Part shown: positions 1,485 to 60,468 of the stretch, piece after piece
How positions within the stretch are numbered: position 1 is the stretch's first letter
Layout: each line of letters opens with the position of its first letter
NCBI GenBank assembly: GCA_965205465.1
Contig: OZ242187.1
Span: 2,454,244-2,518,243, forward strand
From: Candidatus Aldehydirespiratoraceae bacterium
Lineage (GTDB): Bacteria > Actinomycetota > Acidimicrobiia > Acidimicrobiales > Aldehydirespiratoraceae
Direction of reading: 5' to 3'
DNA: 64,000 nucleotides
Program-made: the position numbers and the translations under genes
Notes under the pieces: generated by a model
Databases searched by the model: none
Told to the model about the DNA's origin: nothing
Seen by the model: the letters and a program-made list of their open reading frames with translations, nothing else

Positions 1485-1559
1485 TCTGTCGGCGAGATCC
1501 CAAGTTCGGGCAGGCGCAGACCGCTACCATCTGATCGACGGTCTCTTCGAGGGAGTTTG

Positions 1560-5042: not shown

Positions 5043-5086
5043 CGCAAGAATCCCGGTGGTTGACGTCCCGCTCGACCTAGCTGCCC

Positions 5087-12747: not shown

Positions 12748-13021
12748 CCAAAGCCTAAGTCCGAGCACACGCCCCGACTTGGGCTTTGCCGCGTTCAGGG
12801 CTGATGTTCTATTGGACTTTCTAAATGTGCGGTTCTGAAACGACCGTGTGCAGTCCCGGTGAATGCCTAACGCGCTGGCTCCGCTAGCAAGGTCCAACTC
12901 GGCGCCCCACACTCAACGGTGCTGAGCCTTGATCAGGTGCTAGCTACAAACCTAGCGCAGGATTCATCACTCCGTTAACCGTCGGTTGCTATCAGATGTC
13001 ATCGGGTGCTATCATTCAGAT

Positions 13022-15046
13022 ATGGAAGAGGACTGGCTAGGTACCGATGAAGCAGCTAATTATCTCCGGATGGGAAAAACGAAGCTCTACGAACTAACAC
13101 GGGCTGGACGCATCCCATCGAAACGCGTCAGCAAGAGGTGGATGTACGAGCGATCCGAGTTGGCGACGTGGATGTCTGGCAGTCAGGGGTTCGCGGACTT
13201 CTTCCTCAACACACCATTCAGCATCGAGGAGAACACTGGCCTGCGCGAACCACAGCGTGACGCTTGGACGCAAGCCGCGTCTTACTTCGCGCGTGGCGGC
13301 CAGAAGGCGATCGTTCAGTTGCCGGTGGGGTGTGGCAAGTCGGGTGTTGCGGCGATCTTGCCCTTCGGGATTTCAAGAGGGCGAGTGCTGGTCATCTCTC
13401 CGAACCTCACCATCAAGGAGGAGCTCTACCGGGCACTCGACATCACGAATCGCCAGAAGTGTTTCTGGCACCAGCGTGGAGTCCTTGCTCCAGAACACAT
13501 GAGTCATGGTCCGTACGTATGCACCCTCGACACGGGCAACCTGTCGGTCTGTGAGAAGTCGCACATAGTTGTCACCAACATCCAGCAGTTCGGCACCGAC
13601 GCTGAGAAGTGGCTCAATAGGTTTCCTCAGGACTTCTTCGACCTGATCGTCGTTGATGAGGCTCACCATGGGGCGGCCACGAGCTGGCAGCGTGTATTCG
13701 AGCGGTTTCCCGACGCGAAGATCGCGAATCTGACCGCTACGCCTTTTCGGAGCGACCGGCAGGAACTCGATGGTGACCTTGTGTTTCGCTACTCGTTCAA
13801 GAGCGCAAGCCTCAAGGGCTACCTCAAGAAGGTGAAGGCGAGTTATGCGGCGCCGACGGAACTCACGTTCACGATGGAAGGCGAGGAACGGACTTTCACG
13901 CTCGATGAGGTTCTCGCGATGAAGGAGGAGGATTGGTTCAGCCGCGGGGTGGCCCTCTCGACTCCATGCAACGTGTCGATCGTCGACAACAGCCTGGAGA
14001 AGCTTGAACAGCTACGGCAGACGGGAACCAAGCACCAGCTCATCGCCGTCGCATGCTCAATCAACCATGCAAGACAGGTTCGTTCGTTATACCGAGAGCG
14101 GGGCTATGAGGCCGGTATCGTGCACAGCAATCCGCAGCGGCCGCAAGATGAGCAGGCTAATGACGAAGTCATGCGAGACCTCTACAACGGCATTCTGGAT
14201 TGCGTTATTCAGGTCCAGATGCTTGGAGAGGGCTTCGACCACCCGAAGCTCAGTGTCGCCGCAATCTTTCGACCGTTTCGGACGCTGGCGCCGTACATCC
14301 AGTTCGTAGGCCGGATCTTGCGGGTTGTCGTTCAGAACGATCCGAATCACCCGGACAACTACGGCCATATTGTGACCCACATCGGCATGAACCTCGACGA
14401 GCTACTGAAGAAGTTCCAGATGTTCGAGAACGACGATCAACGGTTCTGGGAGGAGGTGACTGGGGGAGTCGAGCCTGATCCCCCGAAGGAGGTTCTCGGC
14501 GGCAGCGCGCGGATGAAGTTGCATGAGGACATGGTTGTCAGCAACGAGATCGTGGAGCAGTTGTTCGAAGAGGACTTCATCACCGCTGAAGATGCGGAGA
14601 TTCGCGAGGACCTCGAAAGGAAGCTGGAAGCTCTCGGCCTGGATCCTCGGTTGGCGGAACAAGTCGTCCAGAAGAGCAGGGCGGCTGACATGAACCCATC
14701 AGTGACGCGAGCGGCGCAACCGTTCAGCAAGCTCCCGGCCAAGCAATGGAAGGAAGCACGGAAGCGACTAGACGAAGAGGCCCGGCGAACATCCAAGATT
14801 CTCCTGAATCGAGTTGGCTTGCGTCCCGAAGGTGTCGAGATCCCGAGACAGCTGAGGCCTGAAATCGGCGCGACGAACAACTCGATTGCCGCTTTGATGA
14901 TGGTGAACATGGCGGTCGGTTCTACCATCGACGACGAGCGAAAGAGACCGGAGTGGTCTTTCGAAGAGTTCGTTGAGGCCATCGAGGCGCTACCCGAAAT
15001 ACTCGACAGTCTCGTGCGTCAACTGAAAGCAGCCCAAAATGCCTAA
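13022..15046 (+). CDS. SF2 DEAH-box helicase (Res-like) with N-terminal excisionase-type HTH
   Basis: HTH: LGTDEAANYLRMGKTKLYELTRAGRIPSKRV. Helicase motifs I QLPVGCGKSG, II LIVVDEAHH, III NLTATPFR, and C-terminal lobe QVQMLGEGFDHPKLS ... FVGRILR. Start taken at ATG 13022 (track ORF opens at 12986). Confidence 0.8.
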   Translation: MEEDWLGTDEAANYLRMGKTKLYELTRAGRIPSKRVSKRWMYERSELATWMSGSQGFADFFLNTPFSIEENTGLREPQRDAWTQAASYFARGGQKAIVQLPVGCGKSGVAAILPFGISRGRVLVISPNLTIKEELYRALDITNRQKCFWHQRGVLAPEHMSHGPYVCTLDTGNLSVCEKSHIVVTNIQQFGTDAEKWLNRFPQDFFDLIVVDEAHHGAATSWQRVFERFPDAKIANLTATPFRSDRQELDGDLVFRYSFKSASLKGYLKKVKASYAAPTELTFTMEGEERTFTLDEVLAMKEEDWFSRGVALSTPCNVSIVDNSLEKLEQLRQTGTKHQLIAVACSINHARQVRSLYRERGYEAGIVHSNPQRPQDEQANDEVMRDLYNGILDCVIQVQMLGEGFDHPKLSVAAIFRPFRTLAPYIQFVGRILRVVVQNDPNHPDNYGHIVTHIGMNLDELLKKFQMFENDDQRFWEEVTGGVEPDPPKEVLGGSARMKLHEDMVVSNEIVEQLFEEDFITAEDAEIREDLERKLEALGLDPRLAEQVVQKSRAADMNPSVTRAAQPFSKLPAKQWKEARKRLDEEARRTSKILLNRVGLRPEGVEIPRQLRPEIGATNNSIAALMMVNMAVGSTIDDERKRPEWSFEEFVEAIEALPEILDSLVRQLKAAQNA

Positions 15047-16682: not shown

Positions 16683-18316
16683 CTGGATCCACCGGTGTGG
16701 TGAGGTGTTGGGGGTTGGCGCGTCCACCAGAAAGGCCTCCTGACATGGGAGAATGCTGTTAACGACAACGGTCATTCTGGCCATGTGAGGAGGCACTTCC
16801 TGTGAGCAGCATATCTGGTGGGATTGATGGGGTGGAGGTTCGTTTTGATGAGGGGTCTTTGGTGGGGGATGCGGGTTTGTTGTTGGCGGGCACGGTGATG
16901 GATCGTCTGGGGCTCGAGGCGATGCTTGATGAGGTGGTGCGCCCGCCGGGGTCGGGGCGGGGGTCGGGGGCCAAGGCGTTGTCGTTGGTGGCGTCGATGC
17001 TTGTGGGGGGTTCGTTTATCGACGACGCGGACAGGTTGCGGGCCGGGTCAACAGCTCAGGTGCTGCCGTTTAGGCCGGTGGCGCCGTCGACTCTGGGAAC
17101 GTGGTTGCGGTCGTTCACTTTCGGGCATCTGCGTCAGTTCGACCGCGCCAACGAGTTGGCGCTTGGCCGGGCGTGGTCTTTGGGTGCGGCGCCGGCTGTT
17201 AAAGAGATGACGCTGGATTTGGATTCCACGGTGTGTGAGGTCCACGGTCGCGACAAACATGGCACCGCTTATGGCCACACCAAGGTTCTGGGTTATCACC
17301 CGTTGGTGGCGGTGCGCGACGACACCGGCGAGTTCATTCATTCCCGTATGCGGTCGGGTTCGTCTCAGCGCGGTCACGGGCGGTTCGTGTCTGAGACCCT
17401 GGCCCGGTTGCGTCGCTTAGCACCCGACGCGGAAGTCACCGTGCGCGCCGACGCCGGGTTCTTCTCCTATGAGTTGTTGGACCTCATCGAGACCCACAAG
17501 GCGTTCTGGTCGTTCACGATCCCCCAAAACGCCATGGTCAAAACAGCTATAGCAGCCATAGACGACAAAGCCTGGAAGCCCATCGCCTACACCCGCGGCG
17601 GCCAAGCCCAGGTCGCTGAGACCACCATCAAAACCGGGCCCCGATCCCGCAGCGCCGAACCCCGCGAACTACGGCTTGTGGTGCGACGTACCCGCCTCAC
17701 CGGCTCCCAAGCCGAACTGTGGCCCGACTGGCGCCACCACTGCTTGGTCACCAACCGAACCGACCTCGACACCGAAACCGCCGACACCTACCACCGAGCC
17801 CACGCCCGAGTCGAACTCGCCATCAAAGACCTCAAAGACAACGGACTAGCCCACTGCCCCTCAGGGAACTTCTTCGCCAACGGCGCCTGGTTGGCCTGCG
17901 CCACGCTCGCACACAACCTCGCCCGCTGGACAGCCCGCCTCGGCCACACCCAACACCCCAAACACCTCACCATCGCGGCCACCGTCCGCAACCGGCTCCT
18001 GTCGCTGCCCGGCCGGCTCGTCAACCACTCAGGCCGCCACATCCTACGCCTGCCCCTCAACTGGCCCTGGAAACACACCTTCACCACAGCGCACCAACAC
18101 CTACACAACCTGCCCCTGCTCATCTAAACACCCACCCCCCGGGGGCCGGCACCCCCAGCACACACCCCAACGCCACCAACCCAACCCAACCCAACCCCCA
18201 ACCCCGACCCTGCACGCCCCAACACACCAAACCCGGCGTGAAACCCCCCGCCCGACCCCAACCCGCCACCAGCCCGCGAATCCCGCGCTCACCAAAGGCC
18301 AATCGGTGGATTCAGG
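16683..18316 (+). mobile_element. IS1380-family insertion sequence A (1634 bp)
   Basis: Ends CCTGGATCCACCG ... CGGTGGATTCAGG are imperfect inverted repeats. Flanked by CTTAG at 16678-16682 and 18317-18321. Confidence 0.8.
16802..18127 (+). CDS. IS1380-family DDE transposase (IS A)
   Basis: 441 aa: FDEGSLVGDAGLLL..., LDLDSTVCEVHGRDKHGTAYGHTKVLGYHPL, VRADAGFFS, YHRAHARVELAIKDLKD. Confidence 0.85.
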   Translation: MSSISGGIDGVEVRFDEGSLVGDAGLLLAGTVMDRLGLEAMLDEVVRPPGSGRGSGAKALSLVASMLVGGSFIDDADRLRAGSTAQVLPFRPVAPSTLGTWLRSFTFGHLRQFDRANELALGRAWSLGAAPAVKEMTLDLDSTVCEVHGRDKHGTAYGHTKVLGYHPLVAVRDDTGEFIHSRMRSGSSQRGHGRFVSETLARLRRLAPDAEVTVRADAGFFSYELLDLIETHKAFWSFTIPQNAMVKTAIAAIDDKAWKPIAYTRGGQAQVAETTIKTGPRSRSAEPRELRLVVRRTRLTGSQAELWPDWRHHCLVTNRTDLDTETADTYHRAHARVELAIKDLKDNGLAHCPSGNFFANGAWLACATLAHNLARWTARLGHTQHPKHLTIAATVRNRLLSLPGRLVNHSGRHILRLPLNWPWKHTFTTAHQHLHNLPLLI

Positions 18317-18321
18317 CTTAG

Positions 18322-19934
18322 CCTGGATCCACCGACGCGGTGAGGCTTGTGGGGTTGGCGCGTCCACCAGAAAGGCCTCCTGATCTGCGACGATTGTGAT
18401 GTCAATATGCACGTTCGTCTCAACAACAGGAGGCACTTTTTGTGTCTGTATCTTCGCGCAGTTTGGACCGGTTCGCAACGACCTTCGATCATGAGGGCCT
18501 GGTCGCCAACGCGGGCCTGATCCTGGCGGCCACGCTGATGGACCGTTTGGGTCTGCTGGGGCTGATCGAGCGGTGGGTGCGCACCGGCTCGGCGAACCCG
18601 GGCCGAAAGATTCTCACGCTGGTCGCGGCGATGCTCGCTGGCGCCACTCACATCGATCATGTCGAGATGCTGCGCGCGGGCGGCACCGGTCGGGTGCTGG
18701 GGTTCACCCCGATGGCGCCCTCCACGGTGGGGTCGTTCTTGCGGACCTTCACGTTCGGCCACGCCCGCCAGCTCGAAGCGGTGCTGGCGCGCACGCTGGC
18801 GCGTGCCTGGGGACTAGGCGCAGGCCCCGGCGACAAGCCGCTGACGGTCGATCTGGACTCCACGATCTGCGAGGTCCACGGCAAGCACAAGGGCGGCGCC
18901 GCGTACGGCTACACCAAGGTGCTGGGCTATCACCCGCTGCTGGCCGCACGCGCCGACACCCGCGAAGTGCTCGCCGCCCGCATGCGCAAAGGCTCCGCGG
19001 GCTCGGCGCGAGGAGTGGTGCGATTCGTCGACGAGCTCGTCGCCAACCTGCGACGCGCCGGGGCCACCGGGCCGACCACCGTACGCGCCGACTCGGGGTT
19101 CTGGTCCCACAAGCTGATCGACCGCCTCGACGCCCACGACGTCAAGTGGTCGATCACCGTCGCGCTCGGATCCGCTGTGCGCGCAGCGATCCAAGCGATC
19201 GGCGACAACGCCTGGGCCGACATCGCCTACACCCAAGGCGGCCGCGCCCAAGTCGCCGAGACCCAATACGTCACCGGCCGCGGCAAACACGAGCGCACCG
19301 TTCGCCTCGTGGTGCGCCGCACCCGACTCGCCCAGGGCACCCAACAACAGATGTGGCCCGACTGGCGACACCACGCGTTCATCACCAACACCGACCACGA
19401 CACCGCCGCCGCTGATGAGTTCCACCGCGCCCACGCCGTCGTCGAGCTCGCCATCCGCGACCTCAAAGAAGGCTCCGGGCTCGACCACGTCCCCTCAGGC
19501 CACTACGGCGCCAACTGCGCATGGCTCGCCTGCGCAGTGCTCGCCCACAACATCGGCCACTGGACCGCGCTCCTCGCCGGCGCGCCGCCCGCCACCAACC
19601 ACTCCCGACGCACCCGACTCGTCGCCCTCGCCGCCGTGCTGGTGAACCGCTCAGGCACACCCACCCTGCGATACCCCGCCCGCTGGCCCTGGGCAACACA
19701 ATTCCACACCACACTCAAAGCCCTGCGAGCCCTTCCCGGACCCTCCGGCTAAACGACACCACCCGGAACTGACGCCCCCACACAAACCCAGCGTCAACAA
19801 CCCAAACCACACCCCCACACCTAGCCCAACACGCCCAAACACACCAAACCACACCCCCAACAACCCGACGCGACCCCAACCCGCCACCAGCCCGCGAATC
19901 CCGCGCTCACCAAAGGCCAATCGGTGGATTCAGG
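18322..19934 (+). mobile_element. IS1380-family insertion sequence B (1613 bp), diverged from A
   Basis: Same terminal sequences as IS A. Flanked by CTTAG at 18317-18321 and 19935-19939. Confidence 0.8.
18442..19752 (+). CDS. IS1380-family DDE transposase (IS B)
   Basis: 436 aa, collinear with the IS A transposase but clearly diverged: FDHEGLVANAGLIL..., VDLDSTICEVHGKHKGGAAYGYTKVLGYHPL, VRADSGFWS, FHRAHAVVELAIRDLKE. Confidence 0.85.
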   Translation: MSVSSRSLDRFATTFDHEGLVANAGLILAATLMDRLGLLGLIERWVRTGSANPGRKILTLVAAMLAGATHIDHVEMLRAGGTGRVLGFTPMAPSTVGSFLRTFTFGHARQLEAVLARTLARAWGLGAGPGDKPLTVDLDSTICEVHGKHKGGAAYGYTKVLGYHPLLAARADTREVLAARMRKGSAGSARGVVRFVDELVANLRRAGATGPTTVRADSGFWSHKLIDRLDAHDVKWSITVALGSAVRAAIQAIGDNAWADIAYTQGGRAQVAETQYVTGRGKHERTVRLVVRRTRLAQGTQQQMWPDWRHHAFITNTDHDTAAADEFHRAHAVVELAIRDLKEGSGLDHVPSGHYGANCAWLACAVLAHNIGHWTALLAGAPPATNHSRRTRLVALAAVLVNRSGTPTLRYPARWPWATQFHTTLKALRALPGPSG

Positions 19935-21469: not shown

Positions 21470-21851
21470 AGCGTTGCTCCGATCAGTCGGTCCAGCAACG
21501 AGCATCCTGTGCCCGACCTATCACGGTCGGATTCAGCGCGTGGGTCAGATCGGGTCGATCGCGCGTTTGCGTCAGGGGCCAAGCGAGCCTGTTGGTAAAG
21601 GTCGGGGGTCGAGTAGGGCGAAGCTCTGCTCCGAGGATCGCTGTCGCTGCGACTCGTTGACGCGGGGTCTGCGGGGCGGTGTCACACCCCTCTGTCATCG
21701 TTGGGTTCTCGATTTCGGTGAGTTCTATGACGTGCCAGATGCGATTTCCCCGCAAGGCCGGTGTTGAGATAGTTGATCCAATACCAGGCTGCTCGGGTAT
21801 CGCCCGGCTCACAGCTGTCGGCTACTACTCTCCGTGAAAGGGACACCAACC

Positions 21852-22922
21852 ATGGCCTATAGAACCATCGACCTCTTTGCAGGAGCGGGCGGGCTCACCG
21901 CAGGTTTCTGGCTGGCTCGCGACAGCGCAGGAGTTGAACTCTACGATCCTGTCTTCGCGGTGGAGCACGAGCCGGCGGCTGCAGCCACCTACAAGGCCAA
22001 CTTCGGCATACACGTCCATGACGGGGACATCGAGTTCATGGACCCCAGGGTGTACCCCAGCGCCGACATCATCATCGGAGGGCCGCCCTGTCAGGGATTC
22101 TCTCCGCTGGGCCGTGACCGCGACCCCGACTCAAAGGCGGTACTCAACGGATTGTGGGAGCACTTCCTTGCCGCAGTCGTGCAGGTGCGACCGCGAGCGT
22201 TCGTGATCGAGAACGTCCCTCAGTTCCAGCGCTCCGCCCAGTTCAACGAGCTATTGGACCGGATGGCTAATCACCCCCTCCTGTCGCAGTTCGGCTGCGG
22301 CTACGGGGTACTGAATGCCGCGGACTACGGGGTGCCGCAGACCAGGAGACGGGGCATCTTCATGGCGGTCTACAAACAGTCCGTGCCTTGGCCTCCTCCG
22401 CCGACGCACGGCGACTCCCCGATGTTCGAGCAGCCGTATCGCACAGTGCGCGACGCGATCTCCGACCTGCCGGCCGAACCCACCACGGATCAACCCACCA
22501 CAGCCGACGACGGCTCCCAGGATCTCCATATCCGACGCAACCCGCGGGAAACCTCTCTGCAGCGTTACCGGGCTATCCCACCGGGAGGGAACCGCTTCGA
22601 TCTGCAGCGCAATCGGCCCGACATCACGCCGGCCTGCTGGCTCAACAAACCCACGGGCACTACTGACGTGATGGGTCGGATGTGGTGGGATAAACCCGGG
22701 CCGACGATACGGACCGAGTTCTTCAAGCCTGAGAAGGGACGTTACCTACATCCTGAGCACGACAGGCCTATCACCCACCGCGAGGCCGCTCGGCTCCAGA
22801 GTTTCCCCGACACCTTCATCTTTGAAGGATCCAAGATCGAGATCGCTCGCCAGATCGGGAACGCTGTCCCGCCAGTGCTCGCCCGCGAGATCGCCCTGCA
22901 CCTCGCGCGCATCCTCGAATAA
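21852..22922 (+). CDS. DNA (cytosine-5) methyltransferase, copy 2 (intact), presumed cognate of the NaeI-family enzyme
   Basis: Motifs I DLFAGAGG, IV GGPPCQGFS, VI FVIENV, VIII GVPQTRRR, X QIGNAVPP. Convergent with the endonuclease gene. Confidence 0.85.
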   Translation: MAYRTIDLFAGAGGLTAGFWLARDSAGVELYDPVFAVEHEPAAAATYKANFGIHVHDGDIEFMDPRVYPSADIIIGGPPCQGFSPLGRDRDPDSKAVLNGLWEHFLAAVVQVRPRAFVIENVPQFQRSAQFNELLDRMANHPLLSQFGCGYGVLNAADYGVPQTRRRGIFMAVYKQSVPWPPPPTHGDSPMFEQPYRTVRDAISDLPAEPTTDQPTTADDGSQDLHIRRNPRETSLQRYRAIPPGGNRFDLQRNRPDITPACWLNKPTGTTDVMGRMWWDKPGPTIRTEFFKPEKGRYLHPEHDRPITHREAARLQSFPDTFIFEGSKIEIARQIGNAVPPVLAREIALHLARILE

Positions 22923-22966
22923 CGCAAGAATCCCGGTGGTCGACGCCCCGATCGACCTAGCTGCCC

Positions 22967-24103
22967 TCAGTCTGCTGGTCCGGACTCGATGATCTGTTGG
23001 CTCAACCCGAGATAGAGGTCACGGTCGGGGTTCGGTCCTGATGCTTCGTCGGCGCTGGCGAGTCGCCACCACCCGTCACCCAACCAGACCCTGCTATCCG
23101 CTCCGTCCTCGGCGGGGACAACCCGGCAAGAAACCAACTCCCCCTTGTACGGAACAGGAAGATCCAATCCTCGGGCGATGTGGGGGTCAGCCCCCTGGTG
23201 ACCCAGGATCAAGAACCCCTTGCCGCCAAGGTTCTGGGGCAACCTCGCATCACGCGCCCGCTTCATCGGGTCCTTCTGCTGCGCGACTGTGACCATGGTC
23301 TGCCGGTCGATGATTTGGCACTGGATCTCGCGCAGCAAGGCGTTCACGCGCTCCTGGCCCGAAGTATTCAGCAGGATTTTACGACGGCTTTCTTCGCTCA
23401 TCCGCCGGAGAGGGTTCGGCGGCAGGTCCTGCTGTCCACCCCAGAGCCAATAGGTGCTGTCCATCCCGTCGTCGTTCAGACGCCGCTTGTTGTCCCGGTT
23501 GTACTGCCTACGCCTCCGACCGGAGTCGTAGGTCCTGAATTTGAGAAGGTCATCGCTGATCTGAACAACACCGGCGGCCCATTGGGCATCGTCGTCGTTC
23601 ATCCATACGAGGAGTGCGAGGTGGTCGGCAGTACCGGCTTGCTCATGGTCGTCGCAGAGGTACATCTCCATCGGGATCTCCCAACCGCCGAAGTCCTTGG
23701 AGAACTTGCAATCGACATCCTGTCCATCGATCTTCCAGTCGAGGTCGGTCCCGTCGGAGATGTCGAATTCCTTCGTGAGCCCGAGTTCCACTTTGGTGCC
23801 CAAGTGGGTCTTCTCGGTCTTGTTGAGTTGTTGGTAGCACCATCGGCGCGTGCGCTGCCCGTCGAGCAGTTCGTCTAGGGCGTCGCGCAGCACCCAGGCG
23901 AATCGCTCACGACCGTCTGGTTGCTCCTCGAACCAGCGAACAAGACCCGCAAGGGCGGGGGCAGGTGACGAGGACTCTTCACTGGGAGGACGCCGCTTGG
24001 TGGACATCCGTGCCTTCGGGTCGTCAGCGAAGCCTTCTGGCGGCGCGCCACGGGACCCCCTCGATCTTGTCTTTCTACGTCGCATGGAGTCCGGTTGGGT
24101 CAC
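22967..24103 (-). CDS. NaeI-family type II restriction endonuclease, copy 2
   Basis: Same motif set as 5087..6223. About 40 of 378 residues differ between the copies (hand comparison). Confidence 0.8.
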   Translation of the reverse strand: MTQPDSMRRRKTRSRGSRGAPPEGFADDPKARMSTKRRPPSEESSSPAPALAGLVRWFEEQPDGRERFAWVLRDALDELLDGQRTRRWCYQQLNKTEKTHLGTKVELGLTKEFDISDGTDLDWKIDGQDVDCKFSKDFGGWEIPMEMYLCDDHEQAGTADHLALLVWMNDDDAQWAAGVVQISDDLLKFRTYDSGRRRRQYNRDNKRRLNDDGMDSTYWLWGGQQDLPPNPLRRMSEESRRKILLNTSGQERVNALLREIQCQIIDRQTMVTVAQQKDPMKRARDARLPQNLGGKGFLILGHQGADPHIARGLDLPVPYKGELVSCRVVPAEDGADSRVWLGDGWWRLASADEASGPNPDRDLYLGLSQQIIESGPAD

Positions 24104-24175: not shown

Positions 24176-24661
24176 CTAACGCCGGCTACCAACGGTTGTC
24201 TCGCCCTGAGGCCGCCCCGTCCCCTCGGCCGAAGCACGGACCGACTTCTCGACTCGGTCAGCTACCGACTCGGGGTCCTCGTGCTCCCAGAACCGCAGCA
24301 CCGTCCACCCCGCCTGTTGCAGGTAGGCCGTAGTCTCGGCGTCGCGCTCGACGTTGCGGGCGATCTTGTCGGCCCAGTACTCCGAATTGGTGGCGGGTTG
24401 CGTGTGGTGCTCGGGGCAGCCGTGCCAGTAACAGCCGTCCACGAACACCGCGATCCGGCTCTTCCGCAGTACCAGATCAGCTGTACGGGGCAATTCCGGC
24501 TGAGGACGGACCGAGACCCTGAAGCGGATACCGCGTCGATGCACCGCAGAGCGCACGGCCAACTCGGGCTTCGTATCGCGGCTTCGATTGCCCTGCATCG
24601 ACTTGCGGTTGCCGGGCGAGGAAGCCCAAGACGCTCTCCCCGAGCCTTCGGCCACCTTCAA
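24176..24661 (-). CDS. vsr: Very-short-patch repair endonuclease (Vsr), copy 2
   Basis: AVFVDGCYWHGCPEHH ... NVERD ... GWTVLRFWEHE. Confidence 0.85.
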   Translation of the reverse strand: MKVAEGSGRASWASSPGNRKSMQGNRSRDTKPELAVRSAVHRRGIRFRVSVRPQPELPRTADLVLRKSRIAVFVDGCYWHGCPEHHTQPATNSEYWADKIARNVERDAETTAYLQQAGWTVLRFWEHEDPESVADRVEKSVRASAEGTGRPQGETTVGSRR

Positions 24662-24914
24662 GACAATAGTGGATCAGTTGATCCGACACGGTGCCTCGGC
24701 AGTGCTACTCGCTCCTGTGTTGGTCACTAGTCGGATCAAGCCGCGCCATCATTCCCGTCCAGGTCGCCTGGCGACCGCGACTGTCACACCCCTGCTGTGT
24801 GCTTGTGGTGTGGACTCTCTACGAATTGATCGGAAGGCGCGAGGGGTGCAATTGCGTCTTGGTGATGGGCAGAGGGTGCGCGCCCAGGCCGACCGCAGCG
24901 GGCAGACTGAGAGT

Positions 24915-26003
24915 GTGACCGTTGGCTCCGCGATCTCTCTCTTCTCCGGCGCCGGGGGCCTCGACTGGGGGATCGAATCGGCGGGGTTCGCCACACTGGC
25001 CGCGGTGGAATGGGACGACGATGCCTGCGACACCTTGGAGAAGAACGCCCCAATCTACTTTCAGAGTCTCCGCGAGGTGGTTCGGGCCGACCTCTACCCG
25101 CTCGCCAGCGGCGCAGGTGAGGGTCTGACCACGCGGGACATCCTCCGAGCGGCCGGTCTGTCGAGCCGGGAGAGGCCCGATCTGCTCGTGGGTGGGCCAC
25201 CTTGCGTTGCATTCTCCAAGTCAGGCTTCTGGCTCGACTGGAAGCGTGATGGCGTTGACCCCGCAGCGAGTCTTCTGCAGGCCTATACCCGTGTGCTTGC
25301 CGAGGCAAGGCCCCGCTACTTCATTTTTGAGAACGTGTACGCGCTGACCTTCAACAACAAGGCGAGCAGGCCGGCGTTCACCCGCTTACTGGCAGAGATC
25401 GAGGCGGCGGGATACCGGTTTTGGTGGCAAGTGTTGAACACGGCCGACTACGGAGTGCCCCAGGCCCGTCCTCGTCTGTGTGTCGTGGGTTGTCGCAAGC
25501 GAGACACACTGCCTGATCCGCCGGATCCGACTCACCACGGACCATGGGAACGACGAGCTACGACCGGTGGGCCGCTGCCCCACGTCACGGCTGGCGAGGC
25601 GCTCGCCGGGTTGATCACCGACCCCGAGCCCCAGGAGGTGGTGCGAGGGCGTTGGAGCCATCTCCTGCCTGAGGTCCCGCCTGGTGACAACTACCTCTAT
25701 TTCACGGAGAAGCGTGGTCACCCAGCGCCGATCTTCGAGTGGCGGTCGCGGTATTGGTCGTTCCTGTTGAAACTCGATCCAGGTAGGCCGTCACCGACGA
25801 TCCAGGCTCAGCCCGGTCCCAACGTCGGTCCGTTCCACTGGGACAACCGCCGTTTGCGCGTCCCCGAGCTTCGTAGACTCTTCACGTTCCCCGACGACTT
25901 CGCGTTCGTCGGCAAGCGAGCATCAGTGCAGGCTCAGATCGGGAACTCGGTGCCTCCGCTATTTTCGGAGCGAGTCGCTCGAGCGGTCGCGGCCGCGTGC
26001 TAG
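24915..26003 (+). CDS. Second, unrelated DNA (cytosine-5) methyltransferase
   Basis: Motifs SLFSGAGG, GGPPCVAFS, FIFENV, GVPQARPR, QIGNSVPP. Start proposed at in-frame GTG 24915 (VTVGSAISLF...); the track ORF opens far upstream at 24588. Confidence 0.8.
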   Translation: MTVGSAISLFSGAGGLDWGIESAGFATLAAVEWDDDACDTLEKNAPIYFQSLREVVRADLYPLASGAGEGLTTRDILRAAGLSSRERPDLLVGGPPCVAFSKSGFWLDWKRDGVDPAASLLQAYTRVLAEARPRYFIFENVYALTFNNKASRPAFTRLLAEIEAAGYRFWWQVLNTADYGVPQARPRLCVVGCRKRDTLPDPPDPTHHGPWERRATTGGPLPHVTAGEALAGLITDPEPQEVVRGRWSHLLPEVPPGDNYLYFTEKRGHPAPIFEWRSRYWSFLLKLDPGRPSPTIQAQPGPNVGPFHWDNRRLRVPELRRLFTFPDDFAFVGKRASVQAQIGNSVPPLFSERVARAVAAAC

Positions 26004-26041: not shown

Positions 26042-27025
26042 ATGGCGACTGCGGATCAACTGAAGGCGCTTGTCCGCAGCCACGCATCGGGGGACGAGAA
26101 CCAGTTCTACTCTGTCGCCCTGCAGGTAGCCGCCCGGGCGGCGCGAAGTGGCCATAACAAGTTGGCCCAAGAGTTGCGCGACCTGGTCGACGAGGCGAAG
26201 GCAAGGTCGGAGTCCCCTCGGTCGCTTCGGCCAGTCCCGGTGACCCAGCCGCGGGGCGAACTTGCGGGGCTCTTGGCGGTTAGCTACCCCGACGAACGGC
26301 TGTCGGGCCTGGCCCTTGAGGCGGAAGTGCTTCACCGGGTCGAACGAGTGCTGACCGAACAGCGGCAAGCCGATCGCCTCCGTGAGCATGGCTACCACCC
26401 CCAGCATCGCCTTCTGCTGATCGGTTCTCCCGGCACGGGAAAGACAATGACCGGCCGAGTGCTCGCAGGCGAGCTTCGCCTCCCGCTCTTCATGATCCGC
26501 CTCGAGGTGCTCATCACAAAGTTCATGGGCGAGACCGCAGCGAAGCTGAGGTTGATCTTTGATGCTGTCGAAGAAACCCGCGGCGTGTACCTCTTCGACG
26601 AAGTGGATGCTCTTGCAGGCGACCGTTCTTCGGGAAACGACGTCGGCGAAATCCGCCGAGTGCTCAACTCGTTCCTACAGTTCTTGGATGCGAACAATTC
26701 CCAAAGCGTGATCGTCGCGACCTCCAATCATCCGCAGCTCCTCGATCGAGCGATGTTCAGGCGCTTCGACTCGGTGATCGAATACCCGTTGCCCTCCCCG
26801 AAGATCGCACGCGAGGTCATACGTCACCGACTTGCTTCGGTCGACATGAAGGAACTCCGCTGGACCGATGTCGATCAAGCGGCAGAAGGCCTGAGCCACG
26901 CCGAACTGACCCTCGCATGTGAGCAAGCAGCGAAGGGCGCGATTCTGTCAGAGAAGGACCGTGTTACGACGGCGATGTTGAAAGCGGCCCTTCGGGAGCG
27001 GCGACACGTTTCCGGTAGCGCCTGA
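26042..27025 (+). CDS. Classical AAA+ ATPase, IetA-like
   Basis: Walker A LLIGSPGTGKT, Walker B VYLFDEVDAL, sensor ATSNHP, arginine finger RRFD. Followed by an S8-protease remnant, as in ietAS-type pairs. Confidence 0.7.
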   Translation: MATADQLKALVRSHASGDENQFYSVALQVAARAARSGHNKLAQELRDLVDEAKARSESPRSLRPVPVTQPRGELAGLLAVSYPDERLSGLALEAEVLHRVERVLTEQRQADRLREHGYHPQHRLLLIGSPGTGKTMTGRVLAGELRLPLFMIRLEVLITKFMGETAAKLRLIFDAVEETRGVYLFDEVDALAGDRSSGNDVGEIRRVLNSFLQFLDANNSQSVIVATSNHPQLLDRAMFRRFDSVIEYPLPSPKIAREVIRHRLASVDMKELRWTDVDQAAEGLSHAELTLACEQAAKGAILSEKDRVTTAMLKAALRERRHVSGSA

Positions 27026-27042
27026 TCCTCGCCCGGATTCCA

Positions 27043-28695
27043 ATGGCTCCCCGCAATCGACCGCACATCATCGTCGCCCGGCCACCCGAGACGGACCGGT
27101 ACACATCACACCACATGGGTCGCGACAGCCCGAGACCTCCTGCGCCGATCGACCGACAGGAGCACGGGGTGGCCTTGGCGCGAGCGACAGAGGAGGCCGC
27201 GAACGCCGGTCGGGTGAGTCGGTGTAGCACCGTCGAGCGAGGGCGTGTACGTCACGTTCGACAGCTCACCGGGCTTCGAGCTCCGCCTGATGACCTTCGA
27301 CCCGCAGCGATCGACGCCCTTGCGATAGGGCGGGGATTTGAGGCCGTAAACGGCGAGCTGCGCTATCTCGGCACGGAGGTGGCGGGGGCAGCATCGCTGA
27401 TCACCGGCTCACCGGGCTTTCTGATGACCTTCGACCCGCAGCGATCGACGCCCTTGCGATAGGGCGGGGATTTGAGGCCGTAAACGGCGAGCTGCGCTAT
27501 CTGGACGAGGGCAGCATCGCTGATCATCCGGGCGGGCGAGGATCACCTGGAGCGAAGCGATCTCGAACCCGTGGAGAGTCCTGCGCAGGCGTGGAACGCA
27601 CTGAGCGTGGGAGCCTTCACCGAACTTGTGGATGTCGAGGCGTCGGGCAGCGACTACGAGGGCTGGGCACCCATCGCCCCTCCAGGTGAGCTCTCACCAT
27701 TCAGTCGCACATCGGTGTCCTTTCAGCGGCAATGGCCGGCCAAGCCGGAGATCGTGATGGAAGGCGGCAACGCCGCTCGGTCTCCTGGTCCTGGCAACGA
27801 TGTCGACTGGCCTGAATCGCTCCAGCTGTTGACTACCCACCACCGGCCGACCGAACGACTACTTACCGTCGCGAATGCAACCAGTGCAGCGACTTCTCAG
27901 GCCAGCCAGCTCGCGGCGACCGTGGCTGCGGAGTACCCGAGCCTGTGGCCCGAGACGATTCGGGCGCTGGTCGTCCACTCCGCTGAGTGGACCCCGGCGA
28001 TGAGAGACCAGTTCGACGCTGCAAAGGGCCGTCGGGCACGCGAAGCACTCCTGCGGCGATATGGGTTCGGGGTACCAAGCACCGACCGGGCACTACGAAG
28101 TGCTGGCGACGCGCTCACGCTCGTTCTGCAGAGCACGATCAGGCCCTTTGACGACAAGAGCCTTCGGGAGATGCACACCCACGAGCTGCCGTGGCCGACG
28201 GAGGTGCTCGCAGATCTGGCCGAGGCCTCCGTACGTCTCAGGGTCACGCTCTCGTACTTCATCGAGCCTTACCCCGCTCGCCGCGGGTGGCGTCATCGCT
28301 ACCGCTACGCGTCGCACGGGCTTCGCTTTGAGCTGAAGCGACCCGACGAGACGAACGACGATTTTCACAAGCGCTTGAACCGGCGTGCTCTCGACGAAGA
28401 GGAAGGGCGCCCTGTCGGCGGAGACTCGGATGGCTGGCGGCTTGGAAGTCAGGCGCGGAGCCGCGGTTCACTCCACGCCGACTTCTGGGACGGCACCGCC
28501 GTCGAGCTTGCTTCTCGAGGCCGGATCGCCGTGTTCCCTGTCACGGGATGGTGGAAGGAACAACCGAAACGAGACAGGAGCGAGTTCGGAGTGCGTTACG
28601 GGCTCGTGATCTCCATCGAGACGCCGGTCGAGACGGCGGACCTGTGGACGCCGGTCGCTGCTCAGGTCGGGATCCCGACGGCGATCAAGACGTAG
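27043..28695 (+). pseudogene. Decayed S8 (subtilisin-like) peptidase gene, IetS-like
   Basis: The N-terminal piece (27043-) changes frame before GVYVTFDSSPGFELRL and meets stops inside a duplicated block. Only the C-terminal ~370 aa remain open (27571..28695), with a Ser-motif-like ANATSAATSQASQLAATVAAEYP. No Asp/His catalytic region found. Confidence 0.5.
27265..27526 (+). repeat. Tandem duplication, period 134 bp, with identical 82-bp cores (27287-27368 and 27421-27502)
   Basis: Core CTGATGACCTTCGACCCGCAGCGATCGACGCCCTTGCGATAGGGCGGGGATTTGAGGCCGTAAACGGCGAGCTGCGCTATCT occurs twice. Each is followed by CAGCATCGCTGATCA and preceded by CTCACCGGGCTT. Confidence 0.85.
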
Positions 28696-30999: not shown

Positions 31000-31539
31000 A
31001 TGGCAAGAGAACCAGACGACAGGGAGTTCTTCAGCGTCGACGATCTGCCAGACGCCGATCCAGCGGCAGTCGAAGCCGCCTACAGCCAGATTGTGGCCCG
31101 CCACGTATTGGCGAACCTTCGCGCTGGCAGTGGTATGAGTCTCGAACAAGTCGCCAGGCTGCGTGGTGTGACCAAAGCCGCGGTGCACCAGCTTGAGATC
31201 CGGCCGCTCGGCAAAGTCCGGATCGCCTCATTGATCGGCTACCTGCAAGCGGTCGGCTACGACGTCGACGAAGACTGGGTCGCCCGAAGCCTTACCGCCG
31301 CTCTTCCAGCGCGTAGCTACGGCGCGCGCCTCGGGGACTGGCCGCGTCCGGCAATCTTGTCGTTGGTCAGCATGCCGTCGGCGTGGTGTATACGATCCCG
31401 GGACTGGGTAAATGGGAGCGAGATATTCGTCGGGCTCAAAGCGCGCCTCATAGCTGCGCTCGCACTTGTCCAATTCGCAATCGCCGTCAGCCTTAGGCAC
31501 GGCCCAACAAGGAGGTCGGAGAAGGTTGCAGGTCGATAA
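31000..31539 (+). CDS. XRE-family antitoxin-like protein, copy 2, with stop-codon loss (natural end would be 31320)
   Basis: First 106 aa are collinear with 7663..7983. The TGA of copy 1 is TAC here (GCGCGTAGCTACGGCGCG vs GCGCGTAGCTGAGGCGCG), which extends the ORF by 73 codons. Confidence 0.6.
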   Translation: MAREPDDREFFSVDDLPDADPAAVEAAYSQIVARHVLANLRAGSGMSLEQVARLRGVTKAAVHQLEIRPLGKVRIASLIGYLQAVGYDVDEDWVARSLTAALPARSYGARLGDWPRPAILSLVSMPSAWCIRSRDWVNGSEIFVGLKARLIAALALVQFAIAVSLRHGPTRRSEKVAGR

Positions 31540-34210
31540 GGTTTCGCGTGGGCTATTTCTGCCGATTGCGGTAAGCGCTGTATTGCTGATATTGGCCCAG
31601 CCCATCTTGGCCTGGAGCGGCGCCGAGCCTCCGGCGGCCTCACCAACTACGACGACCCACGACTCGGTCACCCTCATTAGCCCGGAGTGGCCGGCAATCC
31701 AAGGCGATCTGGTTTGGGAAGCAACCATGACGGTGGGAAGCAACGGAGGCTTCCTGGAGAATGGCGGTCCTCTCGATGGCTCTATCACCGACAACGAATT
31801 TGCATGGAGAGGGGTGGACTACACAGTAAGAGACATCTTCCTCATCCATCCGGAGTCGGATCCGGCGTCAACAACTGTCAGCATCGATGTTGACCCCGAA
31901 CTCCCGGAAGAGTCCAGTGGTCTGCGGCTTGTGGTTGAGGGGTTAGGGCTGAATCTTGCGGACGGAAGTGGTGACAGTGGGCATTTCAGATGGCACGATG
32001 TCGACCTGGATTGGAATATCGGCGAGACGGTTTCCCTGAGTCTCAATGAGTTTCCCCAGCATCTTGAGCCTCGGTCCATAGACGGCCGAGCAAACAACCT
32101 CAACTATCTCACGTGGGGCATGGCGGGCACGAGCCTTCTCAGGAAGGCCCCGCTCTCTTACACGGACGGCGTATCAGTACCTGCGGACTCGCGACCGAAC
32201 CCGCGCACCATCAGCAACCTGGTGTTCTCCCAGGACGAATCGGTGCTGAACTCCAAACAGGCGAGCGACATGATCTGGCAGTGGGGCCAGTTCATAGATC
32301 ACGACATAACTCTCAGCCCGAACAACCTGGATGATCCCTTCCCAGTCCCCGTTCCTCGATGGGATCCGGTTTTTGATCCAAGCGGGACCGGCCAAGCCAC
32401 CATCCATGTCGATCGTTCTGCATTCGACCCTGAGACTGGGACAGATACACACAATCCTCGCAGGCAGATCAACGCTGTCACGGCGTTCATTGATGGCTCA
32501 CAGGTGTATGGCTCAGAGAGGACCCGTGCCTACGCTCTTCGCGCCAACGACGATACGGGAAGGCTCAAGACCTCACACCAAGGACGATTCTTGCCCTACA
32601 ACGAGCAAGGACTCGAGAACGAAGGGGGTAGCAATCGCCAGAATCTATTCTTGGCGGGCGATGTCCGAGTCAACGAACAGATCGGACTCACCTCCATGCA
32701 TACTCTGTTCGTCCGCGAGCACAACCGCCTCGCGGAGGTCATAGCCGACCAGAATCCTGGGCTGAGTGGCGACGAGATCTACGAACTGGCCCGCAAAGTC
32801 GTTGGTGCTCAGATACAAGCGGTCACGTTCAACGAATTCTTGCCCCTACTACTGGGTCCCGACGCAATAGGCCCGTATTCTGGCTACGACCCAAGCGTCG
32901 CCCCGACCATCACAAGCGAGTTCTCAGCGGGGGCCTACCGGGTCGGCCACACCCAGCTCTCCCCGAATCTCCTGCTCCTCGGCGCCGATGGAGAGACCAG
33001 CCAGATAAGCCTTGCACAAGCGTTCTTCAATCCCTCGTTCTTCGAGGATCATGGCATCTCTGCAGTCCTTCGCGGCCTAGCCGCCCAACAGGCCCAAGAC
33101 GTCGACTCGCTGATCATCAACGAAGTACGAAACCTTCTCCTCCGAGAACCTCAAGGGCCTGCCTTCGATCTGGTGGCCCTCAACATTCAGCGGGGCCGCG
33201 ATCACGGTGTGGGGGATTACAACACCGTGCGCAGCGCGTTCGGCTTGCCTCCGGTGGAGAGCTTTGCCGACATTTCATCTGAGCCGAGCGTTCAGATAGC
33301 TCTGAGACTCGCTTACGGAAACGTCGACGACTTGGACCTCTGGACGGCTGCCCTGGCAGAAGACCATGTGCCCGGAGCGGCGGTCGGTGAGACCCTCCAG
33401 GCCACAATCTCCGACCAGTTCCGCCGCCTCCGCGACGGCGACCGCTACTGGTTCGAGAATGACCCCTATTTCCTGGCCAACCCTGCGCTTGTGGACCAGG
33501 TAGGCGGTACGACCCTGGCGGATATCATCCGCCGCAACACCCCCATCGGCAGCGAGATCGATGACAACGCATTTGTCGTCGGAGGCGACGCTGAACCGCA
33601 GCGTGCCTCCGAAGTGTTCGATGACGTTCCTCCCGACGCATGGTACGAGCCCGCAGTCACTTGGATGGCCCAACACAACATCACCACTGGCTGCAACGTG
33701 CGACTGTTCTGCCCGGACCAGGACGTAACCCGCCAACAGTTCGTCACCTTCCTGTGGAGAGCAGCGGGCGAACCCACCGCCACCCACTTGGGCTCGGAAG
33801 CCTTCGCCGATGTTCAAGAGGGTGGCTACTCGGACGAAGCGATCGGCTGGGCCGTCTCCCGAGAAGTGATTGAAGGATGCACACCGGGCACATTCGGAGA
33901 CCAAGACTGGAACTTCTGCCCTCAGCAACCGGTGACCCGAGGGCACATGGCCACCCTGCTGTACCAGCACGTAGAAGCCGACTACATCGGACAAACCGCT
34001 CCCTATACGGACGTGGCACCCGACAGCGACCACGTAAACAGTGTGGCCTGGATACACGAATTCGAAATCGCCACCGGATGCGACACCGATCTCTTCTGCC
34101 CCGACCGCAACGCCACCCGCGCCGAAGCAGCAGCCTTCATAAACGGAGTAGCTGCCCGACCTTCGGCCTGGGGACCAGGAACCAACTGCTTCCCACCCGC
34201 CGCAGAATAG
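31466..34210 (+). CDS. Secreted/anchored animal-haem-peroxidase-family protein with three C-terminal SLH-like repeats
   Basis: Peroxidase core RSIDGRANNL...MIWQWGQFIDHDITL...AFIDGSQVYG...FLAGDVRVNEQ. N-terminal hydrophobic segment LFLPIAVSAVLLILAQPILA. Three repeats of type F.DV....W...V.W......T.GC....FCP...VTR. Start uncertain (TTG 31526 after AAGGAGG is an alternative). Confidence 0.75.
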   Translation: MSNSQSPSALGTAQQGGRRRLQVDKVSRGLFLPIAVSAVLLILAQPILAWSGAEPPAASPTTTTHDSVTLISPEWPAIQGDLVWEATMTVGSNGGFLENGGPLDGSITDNEFAWRGVDYTVRDIFLIHPESDPASTTVSIDVDPELPEESSGLRLVVEGLGLNLADGSGDSGHFRWHDVDLDWNIGETVSLSLNEFPQHLEPRSIDGRANNLNYLTWGMAGTSLLRKAPLSYTDGVSVPADSRPNPRTISNLVFSQDESVLNSKQASDMIWQWGQFIDHDITLSPNNLDDPFPVPVPRWDPVFDPSGTGQATIHVDRSAFDPETGTDTHNPRRQINAVTAFIDGSQVYGSERTRAYALRANDDTGRLKTSHQGRFLPYNEQGLENEGGSNRQNLFLAGDVRVNEQIGLTSMHTLFVREHNRLAEVIADQNPGLSGDEIYELARKVVGAQIQAVTFNEFLPLLLGPDAIGPYSGYDPSVAPTITSEFSAGAYRVGHTQLSPNLLLLGADGETSQISLAQAFFNPSFFEDHGISAVLRGLAAQQAQDVDSLIINEVRNLLLREPQGPAFDLVALNIQRGRDHGVGDYNTVRSAFGLPPVESFADISSEPSVQIALRLAYGNVDDLDLWTAALAEDHVPGAAVGETLQATISDQFRRLRDGDRYWFENDPYFLANPALVDQVGGTTLADIIRRNTPIGSEIDDNAFVVGGDAEPQRASEVFDDVPPDAWYEPAVTWMAQHNITTGCNVRLFCPDQDVTRQQFVTFLWRAAGEPTATHLGSEAFADVQEGGYSDEAIGWAVSREVIEGCTPGTFGDQDWNFCPQQPVTRGHMATLLYQHVEADYIGQTAPYTDVAPDSDHVNSVAWIHEFEIATGCDTDLFCPDRNATRAEAAAFINGVAARPSAWGPGTNCFPPAAE

Positions 34211-36054: not shown

Positions 36055-36220
36055 AATTAACAGCATAATATATCGCTTTGTATATGTCAGCCCCACAGCA
36101 GCTAGTTCAGCATGCGTTGCTGAGGCGCAGATCTCGGACTAAGTTATGCGTGTTCAACTGGCAGATGAGGTCGACCGGTGGCTGGTTACGAGTCACGGTT
36201 GACCTAGGAGGACTGACATC

Positions 36221-37378
36221 ATGACTGGTGGAGATGCCACAATGCGGGCGTACGGGGGGCAGCAGCCGGTCCCGACGTTCGACGACCCAGCGTTCAGGAA
36301 ACTCAACAAGCCTCTTGCCGAAGCCCGTGTTGCGATCGTGACCTCGGCAGCGCTGCACCGGCCCGATCAGGATCGCTTCGCTGTGGTTGACACAGGCTTT
36401 CGGACGCTTGACCGTGCTGACCGCAACATCGTCCTGGGCCACTGGAGTCCCAACTTCGACCACACAGGCTTTCAACTCGACCTCAATGTCGTGTATCCGA
36501 TCGACCGGTTGGAGGAATTGGCCGCTCAGGGTGTCATCGGTGATGTCGCGCCACGGCATTTCGCCTTTGCCGGCAACCAACCTGAGACAGTCAGCGAACT
36601 GCGTCTCGACACAGGCCCCGCATGTGCGAAGGAGCTGTTGGCCGATGCGGTCGATGTGGTGGTGCTGACGCCGGTTTGACCGGAGTGCACGCGTACCGTG
36701 AGTGCGCTCGCCCATGTCTTCGAAGCCGCTGGTTTGTCGACCATTGTGCTCGCTTCGATGAAGGAGGTAGCCGAGCGGATGATGCCCCCGCGCACGCTCT
36801 ACTGCGAGTTCCCGCTGGGCCGTCCGCTGGGGCGTCCCGACGACGTTGAGTTGCAGCTTGATGTCTTGAACCGCGCCTTGGCATTGCTCGACTCGAACGA
36901 ACCTGTACTCGAGACTCATCCGCTGGTGATCGAATCCGAGGAAACACCTATGGCGTGCTCGATCCCACCGCGCTTCGATGCAACGCTTCCGCCCGCGGTT
37001 GATGAAGCCCAGGGTCTGAGAGCGGCCTATGACCGGTCATTCGACGCCCGGGGTGTCACCTCGGTCGGCCGCGCCATCGACGCCGACACAGTTGTCGATG
37101 CACTCGACGTCCTGGCTCAGTGGGCCAAAGGTTCGTCGTGGAAGGAAACTCCGCTACCGGGCAAGAACACGATCGCGGTCTGTCACGACATACGGGCCTA
37201 CTACACCGAAGCAGCCCTAGAGCTGGCGACAGGGCCGGCGCCAGGGGGGCGTGCGGTCGAAGCCTGGTTCTACACCGAGACCGAAGCTGGCAAGACCTTG
37301 ATGGCGGCGCGCACACAACTGAAGGAGCAGGACGCACCGTTCCCGTTCTGGTTCTACATGGCCCCCGCCCACCGCTAG
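36221..37378 (+). CDS. GrdB/PrdB-family (glycine/sarcosine/betaine/D-proline reductase component B-like) protein with in-frame TGA, probable selenocysteine
   Basis: Track ORFs 36221..36679 and 36698..37378 are in the same frame, separated only by TGA 36677-36679. Read-through gives VVVLTPV-U-PECTRTVSALAHVFEAAGLSTIVL. U-x-x-C-T-R matches the GrdB redox motif as I recall it. RBS AGGAGGA lies 8 nt before ATG 36221. Confidence 0.65.
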
Positions 37379-60187: not shown

Positions 60188-60350
60188 TCTCTTTGCTTTG
60201 CGATGTTCCTTGATGAGTCAGGACGATGGGGTCTTCGAAGTAGCAGAACGATGGAGACCCGAAGACACCGAGGTTCAGTAGCTCGCCCGCGATCGTAATC
60301 GTGCAAGCGGTAGGGGATGACGTGACGCGCTGTGGCATCTGGACGCGGCT

Positions 60351-60414
60351 CATCTTCGGATCGGGATCAGCGACCATCGGGTCATCTTCGGATCGGGATC
60401 AGCGACCATCGGGT
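60351..60414 (+). repeat. Perfect 32-bp tandem duplication (CATCTTCGGATCGGGATCAGCGACCATCGGGT x2)
   Basis: 60351-60382 is identical to 60383-60414. It lies 55 nt upstream of the GmrSD start. Confidence 0.9.
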
Positions 60415-60468
60415 CCGATTGCATACAATGCGAACGATTTCCGAGGAGCCGTAGGAAGGGACCAAACA

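Follow-up and report, generated by a model that had tools for sequence, protein, structure and literature searches.

A PrdB-like gene of the Acidimicrobiales with an internal UGA codon that is very probably read as selenocysteine

The stretch of DNA considered here, 64 kb of contig OZ242187.1 from a Candidatus Aldehydirespiratoraceae bacterium (called the window in what follows, always at its full length), carries at positions 36221-37378 what is very probably one gene, coding for a selenoprotein of 385 residues from the PrdB/GrdB superfamily in which an internal UGA stands for selenocysteine (Sec). The TGA at 36677-36679 lies in frame between an open reading frame (ORF) at 36221-36679, of 152 aa, and a GTG-initiated ORF at 36698-37378, of 226 aa. 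In fact, one frame is kept throughout, from the ATG at 36221 across the TGA to the TAG at 37376-37378, and read-through gives a product of 385 residues that contains ...DVVVLTPV-U-PECTRTVSALAHVFEAAGLSTIVL...; around U153 the translated product reads ...DVVVLTPV-U-PECTRTVSALAHVFEAAG... An original prediction, made from the letters of this DNA, had described two ORFs in the same frame split only by this TGA and a 385-aa protein obtained by reading through it. Both descriptions agree with the sequence, the ORF listing and the translation, and no other in-frame stop occurs in 81 compared sequences. Its placing of Sec at the TGA, within a U-x-x-C redox motif, is likewise supported by the presence of TGA in 81/81 sequences, by homologues with cysteine and by a conserved selenocysteine insertion sequence (SECIS). 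The features of the gene around this codon are the following.

36206-36211, + strand: putative Shine-Dalgarno-like AGGAGG, 9 nt 5' of the ATG at 36221, as read from the sequence.
36221-37378, + strand: complete coding sequence of the proposed selenoprotein, 385 residues and the TAG stop, with Sec as residue 153 (translation).
36677-36679, + strand: UGA very probably read as selenocysteine, U153 (conserved TGA, Cys in homologues, no variant).
36686-36688, + strand: TGC codon of Cys156, the partner Cys of U-P-E-C, 5' of the GTG used as the start of the 226-aa protein.

The conservation of the TGA was followed in a set of 81 sequences, formed by the window and the best 80 related loci, at 60-99% protein identity; relatives occur in at least 578 species-level genomes, the best 80 of which were analysed. 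These 80 loci are labelled almost wholly as Acidimicrobiia or, more broadly, as Actinomycetota, and the loci of metagenome-assembled genomes (MAGs) of Candidatus Aldehydirespiratoraceae (Acidimicrobiales) share 96-99% protein identity with the window. The tblastn alignments span residues 1-385 in 80 genomes, the aligned codon is TGA in every sequence (80 loci and the window), and further in-frame stops are found in 0/81. Mean entropy at the three codon positions is 0.51/0.36/1.40 over the 180 nt before the conserved element described below and 0.57/0.42/1.46 over the 180 nt after it. This third-position periodicity on both sides, together with the lack of other stops, indicates that both halves are translated in frame under purifying selection. 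The TGA and the next 35 nt show no variant and no indel in the covering contigs of four independent public runs. A different kind of observation comes from contigs of other strains present in the same metagenomes (runs X2 and X5), which align to the window solely across the SECIS stretch 36686-36729; their diverged 5' sequence still has the TGA (...CTGACCCCGGTCTGACC...), and this restricted alignment means that the element is far more conserved than its flanks. A reassignment of TGA as a sense codon was considered and rejected, since TGA is a common normal stop in the window, where it terminates 16 of the 39 long coding-like ORFs.

Homologues from the protein database complete the comparison. 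More than 60 of them are full-length single polypeptides of 380-416 aa and 41-54% identity, from Woeseiaceae, other Pseudomonadota, Solirubrobacterales, Acidimicrobiales and Tara Oceans samples, some of which bear the JGI label "D-proline reductase (dithiol) PrdB". The residue aligned to the TGA is Cys in 54/66 full-length homologues, Gly in 11/66 and Ser in 1/66; the partner Cys, three residues past the TGA position, is present in 66/66 homologues and is encoded by TGY in 81/81 loci. Cys in the place of Sec had been anticipated by the original prediction, and so had the splitting of the gene by automatic annotation. The closest database matches are in fact hundreds of 226-aa proteins, which correspond to the downstream half called alone, and 152-aa calls are also present. 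The 11 homologues with Gly at the active-site position (P0100, P0110, P0149, P0152, P0158, P0166, P0169 and P0171-P0174) share the motif L-G-P-M-C-T-R-T-V-C, which keeps the partner Cys and has an extra Cys seven residues past the Gly; these proteins may have a rewired redox pair or may have lost the function. Among the loci with TGA there is also one (L052, CAMDLK010000018.1) titled 'MAG: Bifidobacterium breve', which has an Acidimicrobiia-type orthologue with 62% identity, the TGA and the SECIS; this record is probably mislabelled or its bin contaminated.

Downstream of the UGA a bacterial SECIS hairpin is predicted. Hairpin positions are counted from the T of the TGA as 1, so that the window position is 36676 + n, and its parts are as follows.

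36687-36711, + strand: predicted conserved bacterial SECIS hairpin (covariation, RNAalifold, frozen synonymous sites).
36691-36696 with 36702-36707, + strand: 6-bp stem, positions 15-20 with 26-31.
36697-36701, + strand: apical loop CGUGA of 5 nt (C21, G22, U23, G24, A25).
36687-36688 with 36710-36711, + strand: closing pairs G11-C35 and Y12-G34.
A13 C14 opposite U32 C33, + strand: 2x2 internal loop between the closing pairs and the 6-bp stem.

Several lines of evidence converge on this structure. Across the 81 sequences, pair 18-28 is never C-A: it reads U-A in 41, C-G in 35 and U-G in 5. Pair 17-29 is either G-C or G-U, and pair 12-34 either C-G or U-G. In the 67 distinct rows, 99.8% of the hairpin cells are paired, and 0/500 shuffles equalled the pairing or the covariation score; when the 3' partners were slid as a control, at most 69% were paired. 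RNAalifold, run unguided, returns exactly the same structure. The third codon positions within the hairpin (codons 4 and 6-9 past the UGA) have zero entropy in 81/81 sequences, and codon 5 is the one that covaries; third positions upstream and downstream of the hairpin have entropies of about 1.2-1.9. Even the rare Ser codon AGT is fixed inside it. The folding free energy is -8.5 kcal/mol in the window, a value that is also the median of the family, and 65/81 sequences lie at -7.5 kcal/mol or below. Scored with a covariance model of the element, the site reaches 77.5 bits, and a scan of the window with this model gave nothing else significant; the Rfam scan of the window returned no match for the hairpin.

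The published model of bacterial SECIS elements (bSECIS) has an upper stem of 4-16 bp, a minimum free energy of -7.5 kcal/mol or lower, and a loop of 3-9 nt that is separated from the UGA by 16-37 nt and has a G as its first or second nucleotide, with G or U usually next (PMC13188914). The conserved hairpin falls within this model on all four counts, having a 6-bp stem with a 5-nt loop, G-U at loop positions 2-3, a spacing of 17 nt and the folding energy given above. Unlike in the commonest bSECIS pattern, the first and last nucleotides of its loop (C and A) form no closing pair. The assignment of 36687-36711 as the SECIS is thus supported by covariation, and binding of SelB to it is predicted.

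The original prediction had placed the SECIS elsewhere, in an 8-bp hairpin starting 4 nt after the TGA.

36683-36690 (GAGTGCAC) with 36702-36709 (GTGCGCTC), + strand: earlier-proposed 8-bp hairpin (loop of 11 nt, one of the pairs G-U).

This stem and its 11-nt loop do exist physically in the window, with a folding energy of -11.8 kcal/mol, and here the earlier description stands. On the other hand, the family median is +1.6 kcal/mol, the stem is paired in 65.5% of cells in the 81 sequences against 65.6% in shuffled controls, which is not above chance, and region 36670-36740 folds no better than shuffled sequence (z = 0.61). Both the 11-nt loop (3-9 in the model) and the 11-nt distance to the UGA (16-37 in the model) lie outside bSECIS (PMC13188914), and the helix competes with the conserved hairpin for the same 3' arm. 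Its role as a SECIS was therefore rejected, being neither conserved nor within the model while another hairpin is conserved; it is a lineage-specific alternative helix, stable only in the clade of the window.

A second hairpin with the layout of the conserved SECIS has been observed in a 96%-identical relative (L006). In this locus, a second PrdB-like gene lies about 5 kb away (11350-12288, - strand), coding for a short form of about 270 aa with 43% identity, and it has its own in-frame TGA (VPV-U-PNCTRAV), with the Sec codon at position 11707 of that locus. The hairpin of this paralogue, CCGCGC-GGUCG-GCGCGG, is unrelated in sequence but has the identical +15 to +31 geometry and G-U at loop positions 2-3, which is what a shared SelB would require. 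A short paralogue of this type is absent from the window. The L006 paralogue was the sole yield of a scan for Sec/Cys pairs across the related loci, in which off-frame shadows of the selenoprotein gene gave too much noise.

The protein encoded by the window is PrdB-like, and its domains are arranged as follows.

36269-36895, + strand: PrdB-like domain, residues 17-225 (TIGR04483, PF07355).
36938-37375, + strand: C-terminal, mostly helical domain, residues ~240-385, absent from canonical PrdB.

Profile searches were run with U replaced by C. Pfam GRDB (PF07355) matches residues 11-150 with 29.3 bits (gathering score 22), over profile positions 202-345 of 347. The best match is the NCBIfam PrdB model TIGR04483, at residues 17-225 (E 1.6e-37, 129.2 bits, profile positions 12-220 of 238), which remains below the 300-bit equivalog cut-off, and TIGR01918 (glycine/betaine/sarcosine/D-proline reductase family selenoprotein B) gives 48.5 bits, below its cut-off of 65.45. 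The U-P-E-C at residues 153-156 has the U-x-x-C pattern of PrdB. No Pfam or NCBIfam match was obtained for the C-terminal ~150 residues, a domain conserved across all full-length homologues. The assignment to the GrdB/PrdB family made by the original prediction therefore holds at the level of PF07355 and of the best match, TIGR04483, and does not extend to a genuine PrdB or GrdB, the scores being sub-threshold. The label PrdB-like, rather than bona fide PrdB or GrdB, is used here because of these scores, the extra C-terminal domain and the lack of PrdA or GrdA nearby.

An AlphaFold2 model was built for a Cys homologue, P0032 (51% identity), from an alignment of 82 rows (pLDDT, the predicted local distance difference test, 94.5; pTM, the predicted template modelling score, 0.93). 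In this model, the loop that follows strand 145-149 contains the Sec-equivalent Cys152, Cys155 starts helix 155-168, and the helical domain runs from residue ~259 onwards. Strand, loop, CxxC and helix in this order are typical of redox-active CxxC motifs. No relative in the PDB was found by sequence, and Foldseek with the P0032 model gave nothing significant, the best result having E 0.02 and a template modelling (TM) score below 0.3, so that the fold offered no clue to function. In the window protein, Sec153 and Cys156 are the U-P-E-C redox centre, placed at the N-terminus of a helix after a beta-strand. A mechanism can be proposed in outline: UGA 36677 would be decoded as selenocysteine during translation, the hairpin 11-35 nt past the UGA recruiting SelB with GTP and Sec-tRNA(Sec) to the ribosome. 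By analogy with PrdB, the selenol might then attack the bound substrate or a disulfide-type bond, Cys156 might resolve the adduct to give a selenenylsulfide, and a cellular thiol system might re-reduce it.

Several points weigh against this interpretation. Both the incorporation of Sec and the full-length polypeptide are deduced from sequence, the catalytic mechanism is drawn solely from the analogy with PrdB, and the structural model belongs to a 51%-identical Cys homologue and not to the window protein. Regarding the hairpin, two-sided covariation is seen in only one of its eight pairs, the region encodes a conserved peptide, so that its nucleotide conservation is partly a protein constraint, and in the window itself the 8-bp helix can compete with it on thermodynamic grounds (-11.8 against -8.5 kcal/mol). 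Finally, a search with SelA, SelB and SelD motifs and ARAGORN found none of selA, selB, selC and selD in the 64-kb window or across 85 related loci (1.07 Mb), a sample of about 13 kb per genome that is uninformative for whole chromosomes.

The name given by the databases would make this gene a genuine D-proline reductase PrdB of the Stickland type, with PrdA encoded elsewhere in the genome. The JGI name on homologues, 'D-proline reductase (dithiol) PrdB', speaks for it, as does the best NCBIfam match, which covers 209/238 positions of the TIGR04483 profile. However, the 129 bits are far under the 300-bit cut-off, an extra domain of ~150 aa is present at the C-terminus of the protein, and the hosts, Acidimicrobiia that live in activated sludge, soil, freshwater and marine habitats, do not ferment amino acids. 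The surroundings of the gene also disagree with it. Neither PrdA, GrdE (Gly_reductase) and GrdA nor thioredoxin-system or sel genes were found in the 64-kb window, and prdA and other prd genes were not found within +/-10 kb in five contigs of the source lineage. There is no conserved neighbour across the 81 loci, the commonest, an AMP-binding ligase, being present in 18/81; sulfatases lie near the gene in ~8/81 loci each, and a downstream DUF4032 kinase-like gene is confined to the clade of the window. A genuine PrdB is thus quite improbable, and canonical D-proline reduction is unlikely given that no pyruvoyl subunit is encoded nearby and that the score is below the PrdB cut-off. The substrate of the PrdB-like selenoprotein is probably other than D-proline or glycine, because no PrdA, GrdA or GrdE is found nearby and because of the extra helical C-terminal domain. 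The long form has Sec in essentially all Acidimicrobiales that possess it, and Cys in Woeseiaceae, other Pseudomonadota and Solirubrobacterales. A tentative proposal, to which we give somewhat less than an even chance, is that this long-form PrdB-like protein is a self-contained selenoenzyme whose substrate and role in the cell are unrelated to Stickland proline or glycine reduction.

Selenium might also be dispensable. The TGA could be read through with a near-cognate Cys or Trp, or under stimulation by the hairpin, in a genome without Sec machinery. Cys can functionally substitute for Sec, as in 54/66 homologues. Nevertheless, the UGA and the SECIS-like hairpin are kept in 81 species where TGC would suffice, and the hairpin fits the SelB-type bSECIS model. 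Moreover, Sec machinery and 7-15 selenoproteins are reported for cultured members of the same order (PMC5029168). Ilumatobacter coccineus, I. nonamiensis and Ca. Microthrix parvicella are listed with SelD, SelA and SelB and with 15, 10 and 7 known selenoproteins, respectively, and Acidimicrobium ferrooxidans with none (Peng et al., 2016; PMC5029168 Tables S1, S2). In another order of the Acidimicrobiia, selA/B/C/D have been described in all 84 complete Actinomarina genomes (2026 preprint). The TGA form of the gene occurs in MAGs assigned to Ilumatobacter/Microthrix (L014, L019, L022, L023 and L036). Selenium-free read-through is left with a slim chance.

Two separate genes, one for a protein of 152 aa that stops at the TGA and another for a 226-aa protein starting from GTG 36698, are what hundreds of 226-aa and 152-aa database calls imply, and the window has a GGAG 12 nt 5' of this GTG. 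The six codons from the TGA to the GTG (P-x-C-T-R-T) are nonetheless conserved, with an invariant Cys among them, and in more than 60 homologues a single chain of 380-416 aa has Cys where the TGA stands. The GGAG corresponds to a Glu codon in this clade only, most relatives having CTC or CTG, and GTG 36698 is frozen because it is part of the hairpin loop. The invariant Cys encoded between TGA and GTG and the single-chain homologues rule out a pair of genes, a reading with a very slim chance indeed. A pseudogene, in which a nonsense change of TGC/TGT to TGA killed a Cys-type gene, would need one base change from TGY, and the region around the gene is mobile and variable, containing transposases and restriction-modification systems. 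This reading has next to no chance, since the same TGA stands in 81/81 sequences of different species and both halves are under strong in-frame purifying selection, with no more stops or frameshifts, a conservation that rules it out.

The surroundings of the selenoprotein gene are of some interest in themselves. In the source lineage they include restriction-modification systems, toxin-antitoxin systems and insertion sequence (IS) elements; a tRNA scan and the Rfam scan of the window found nothing. An antisense ORF (36107-36919, - strand, 270 aa) overlaps the gene and has no Pfam match; it is best read as a GC-rich shadow ORF rather than as a gene. Two kilobases upstream (31466-34207, + strand) there is a protein of 914 aa in which an S-layer homology domain accompanies a haem peroxidase domain of the animal type (E 4.5e-152), a combination that is unusual for an actinobacterium. 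A cassette of a C5 cytosine methyltransferase and a NaeI-type restriction endonuclease occurs twice in the window (4080-6223 and 21834-24103), and a third C5 methylase (24588-26000) adjoins AAA ATPase and subtilase genes (26042-28692). Positions 1557-3515 encode a protein with the helical domain of the 5-hydroxymethyldeoxyuridine (5-hmdU) DNA kinase (E 1e-87) beside a MazG/MazG_C pyrophosphohydrolase. The pairing of 5-hmdU DNA kinase and MazG is typical of phage thymidine hypermodification systems; in the window, this pair lies in a bacterial island with GmrSD (60301-62316), a ResIII helicase (12986-15043) and two DDE transposases (16802-19749).

The significance of the gene lies first in the databases. 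An annotation error has spread there, hundreds of Acidimicrobiia "hypothetical proteins" of 152 and 226 aa being halves of one selenoprotein, and the SECIS alignment with its covarying pair could be used for the automatic repair of such split annotations. The gene is a well-supported added member of the PrdB-type selenoproteins, which are abundant in oxic waters without an explained role. Its stand-alone position, extra domain and sub-threshold PrdB score suggest that the name "proline reductase" is misleading. If the proposal of a self-contained selenoenzyme is true, it would represent a redox activity that is widespread among aerobic environmental bacteria and as yet uncharacterised; a relative is present in at least 578 species-level genomes.

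The closest characterised system is PrdB, the selenoprotein subunit of the clostridial D-proline reductase (Kabisch et al., 1999, cited in PMC1088965 and PMC13188914). As in PrdB, the window protein has U-x-x-C followed by T-R and an in-frame UGA, and its domain covers nearly the full PrdB profile. Unlike PrdB, it has 385 aa (against a profile of 238 positions), an extra helical C-terminal domain and a score of 129 bits, below the equivalog cut-off of 300; moreover, no prdA, prdC or other prd genes lie near it, and its hosts are not amino-acid fermenters. With GrdB, GrdF and GrdH of the glycine, sarcosine and betaine reductases (PF07355, TIGR01917, TIGR01918) it shares the Pfam family, the match stopping just before the Sec. 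In GrdB, however, the homologous domain (profile ~203-421) comes at the C-terminal end, preceded by ~200 aa, whereas in the window protein it is N-terminal; the GrdB motif is UxxCxxC (PMC13188914) instead of UxxC; and no grdA, grdE, grdC or grdD lies near the window gene. A third term of comparison is found in metagenomes, where PrdB-type UxxC selenoproteins have been known since 2005 (PMC1088965). In the Sargasso Sea survey, "Proline reductase PrdB" (pfam07355, UxxC) ranked third in abundance among selenoprotein families, with 42 genes (PMC1088965), and in the Global Ocean Sampling the PrdB family had 235 Sec and 110 Cys forms (PMC2398784). "Proline reductase" selenoproteins have also been listed for non-Stickland bacteria, among them Anaeromyxobacter and Geobacter (PMC1794560). 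The window gene resembles this ocean family, abundant in oxic samples, in having pfam07355 with UxxC and both Sec and Cys forms; the ocean-metagenome papers (PMC1088965, PMC2398784) describe neither domain architecture nor the absence of PrdA. By description, rather than by sequence comparison, the ocean family is most plausibly the published family of the window gene. The kind is already known, and the result is an annotation correction rather than a discovery, one that would not surprise a selenoprotein specialist.

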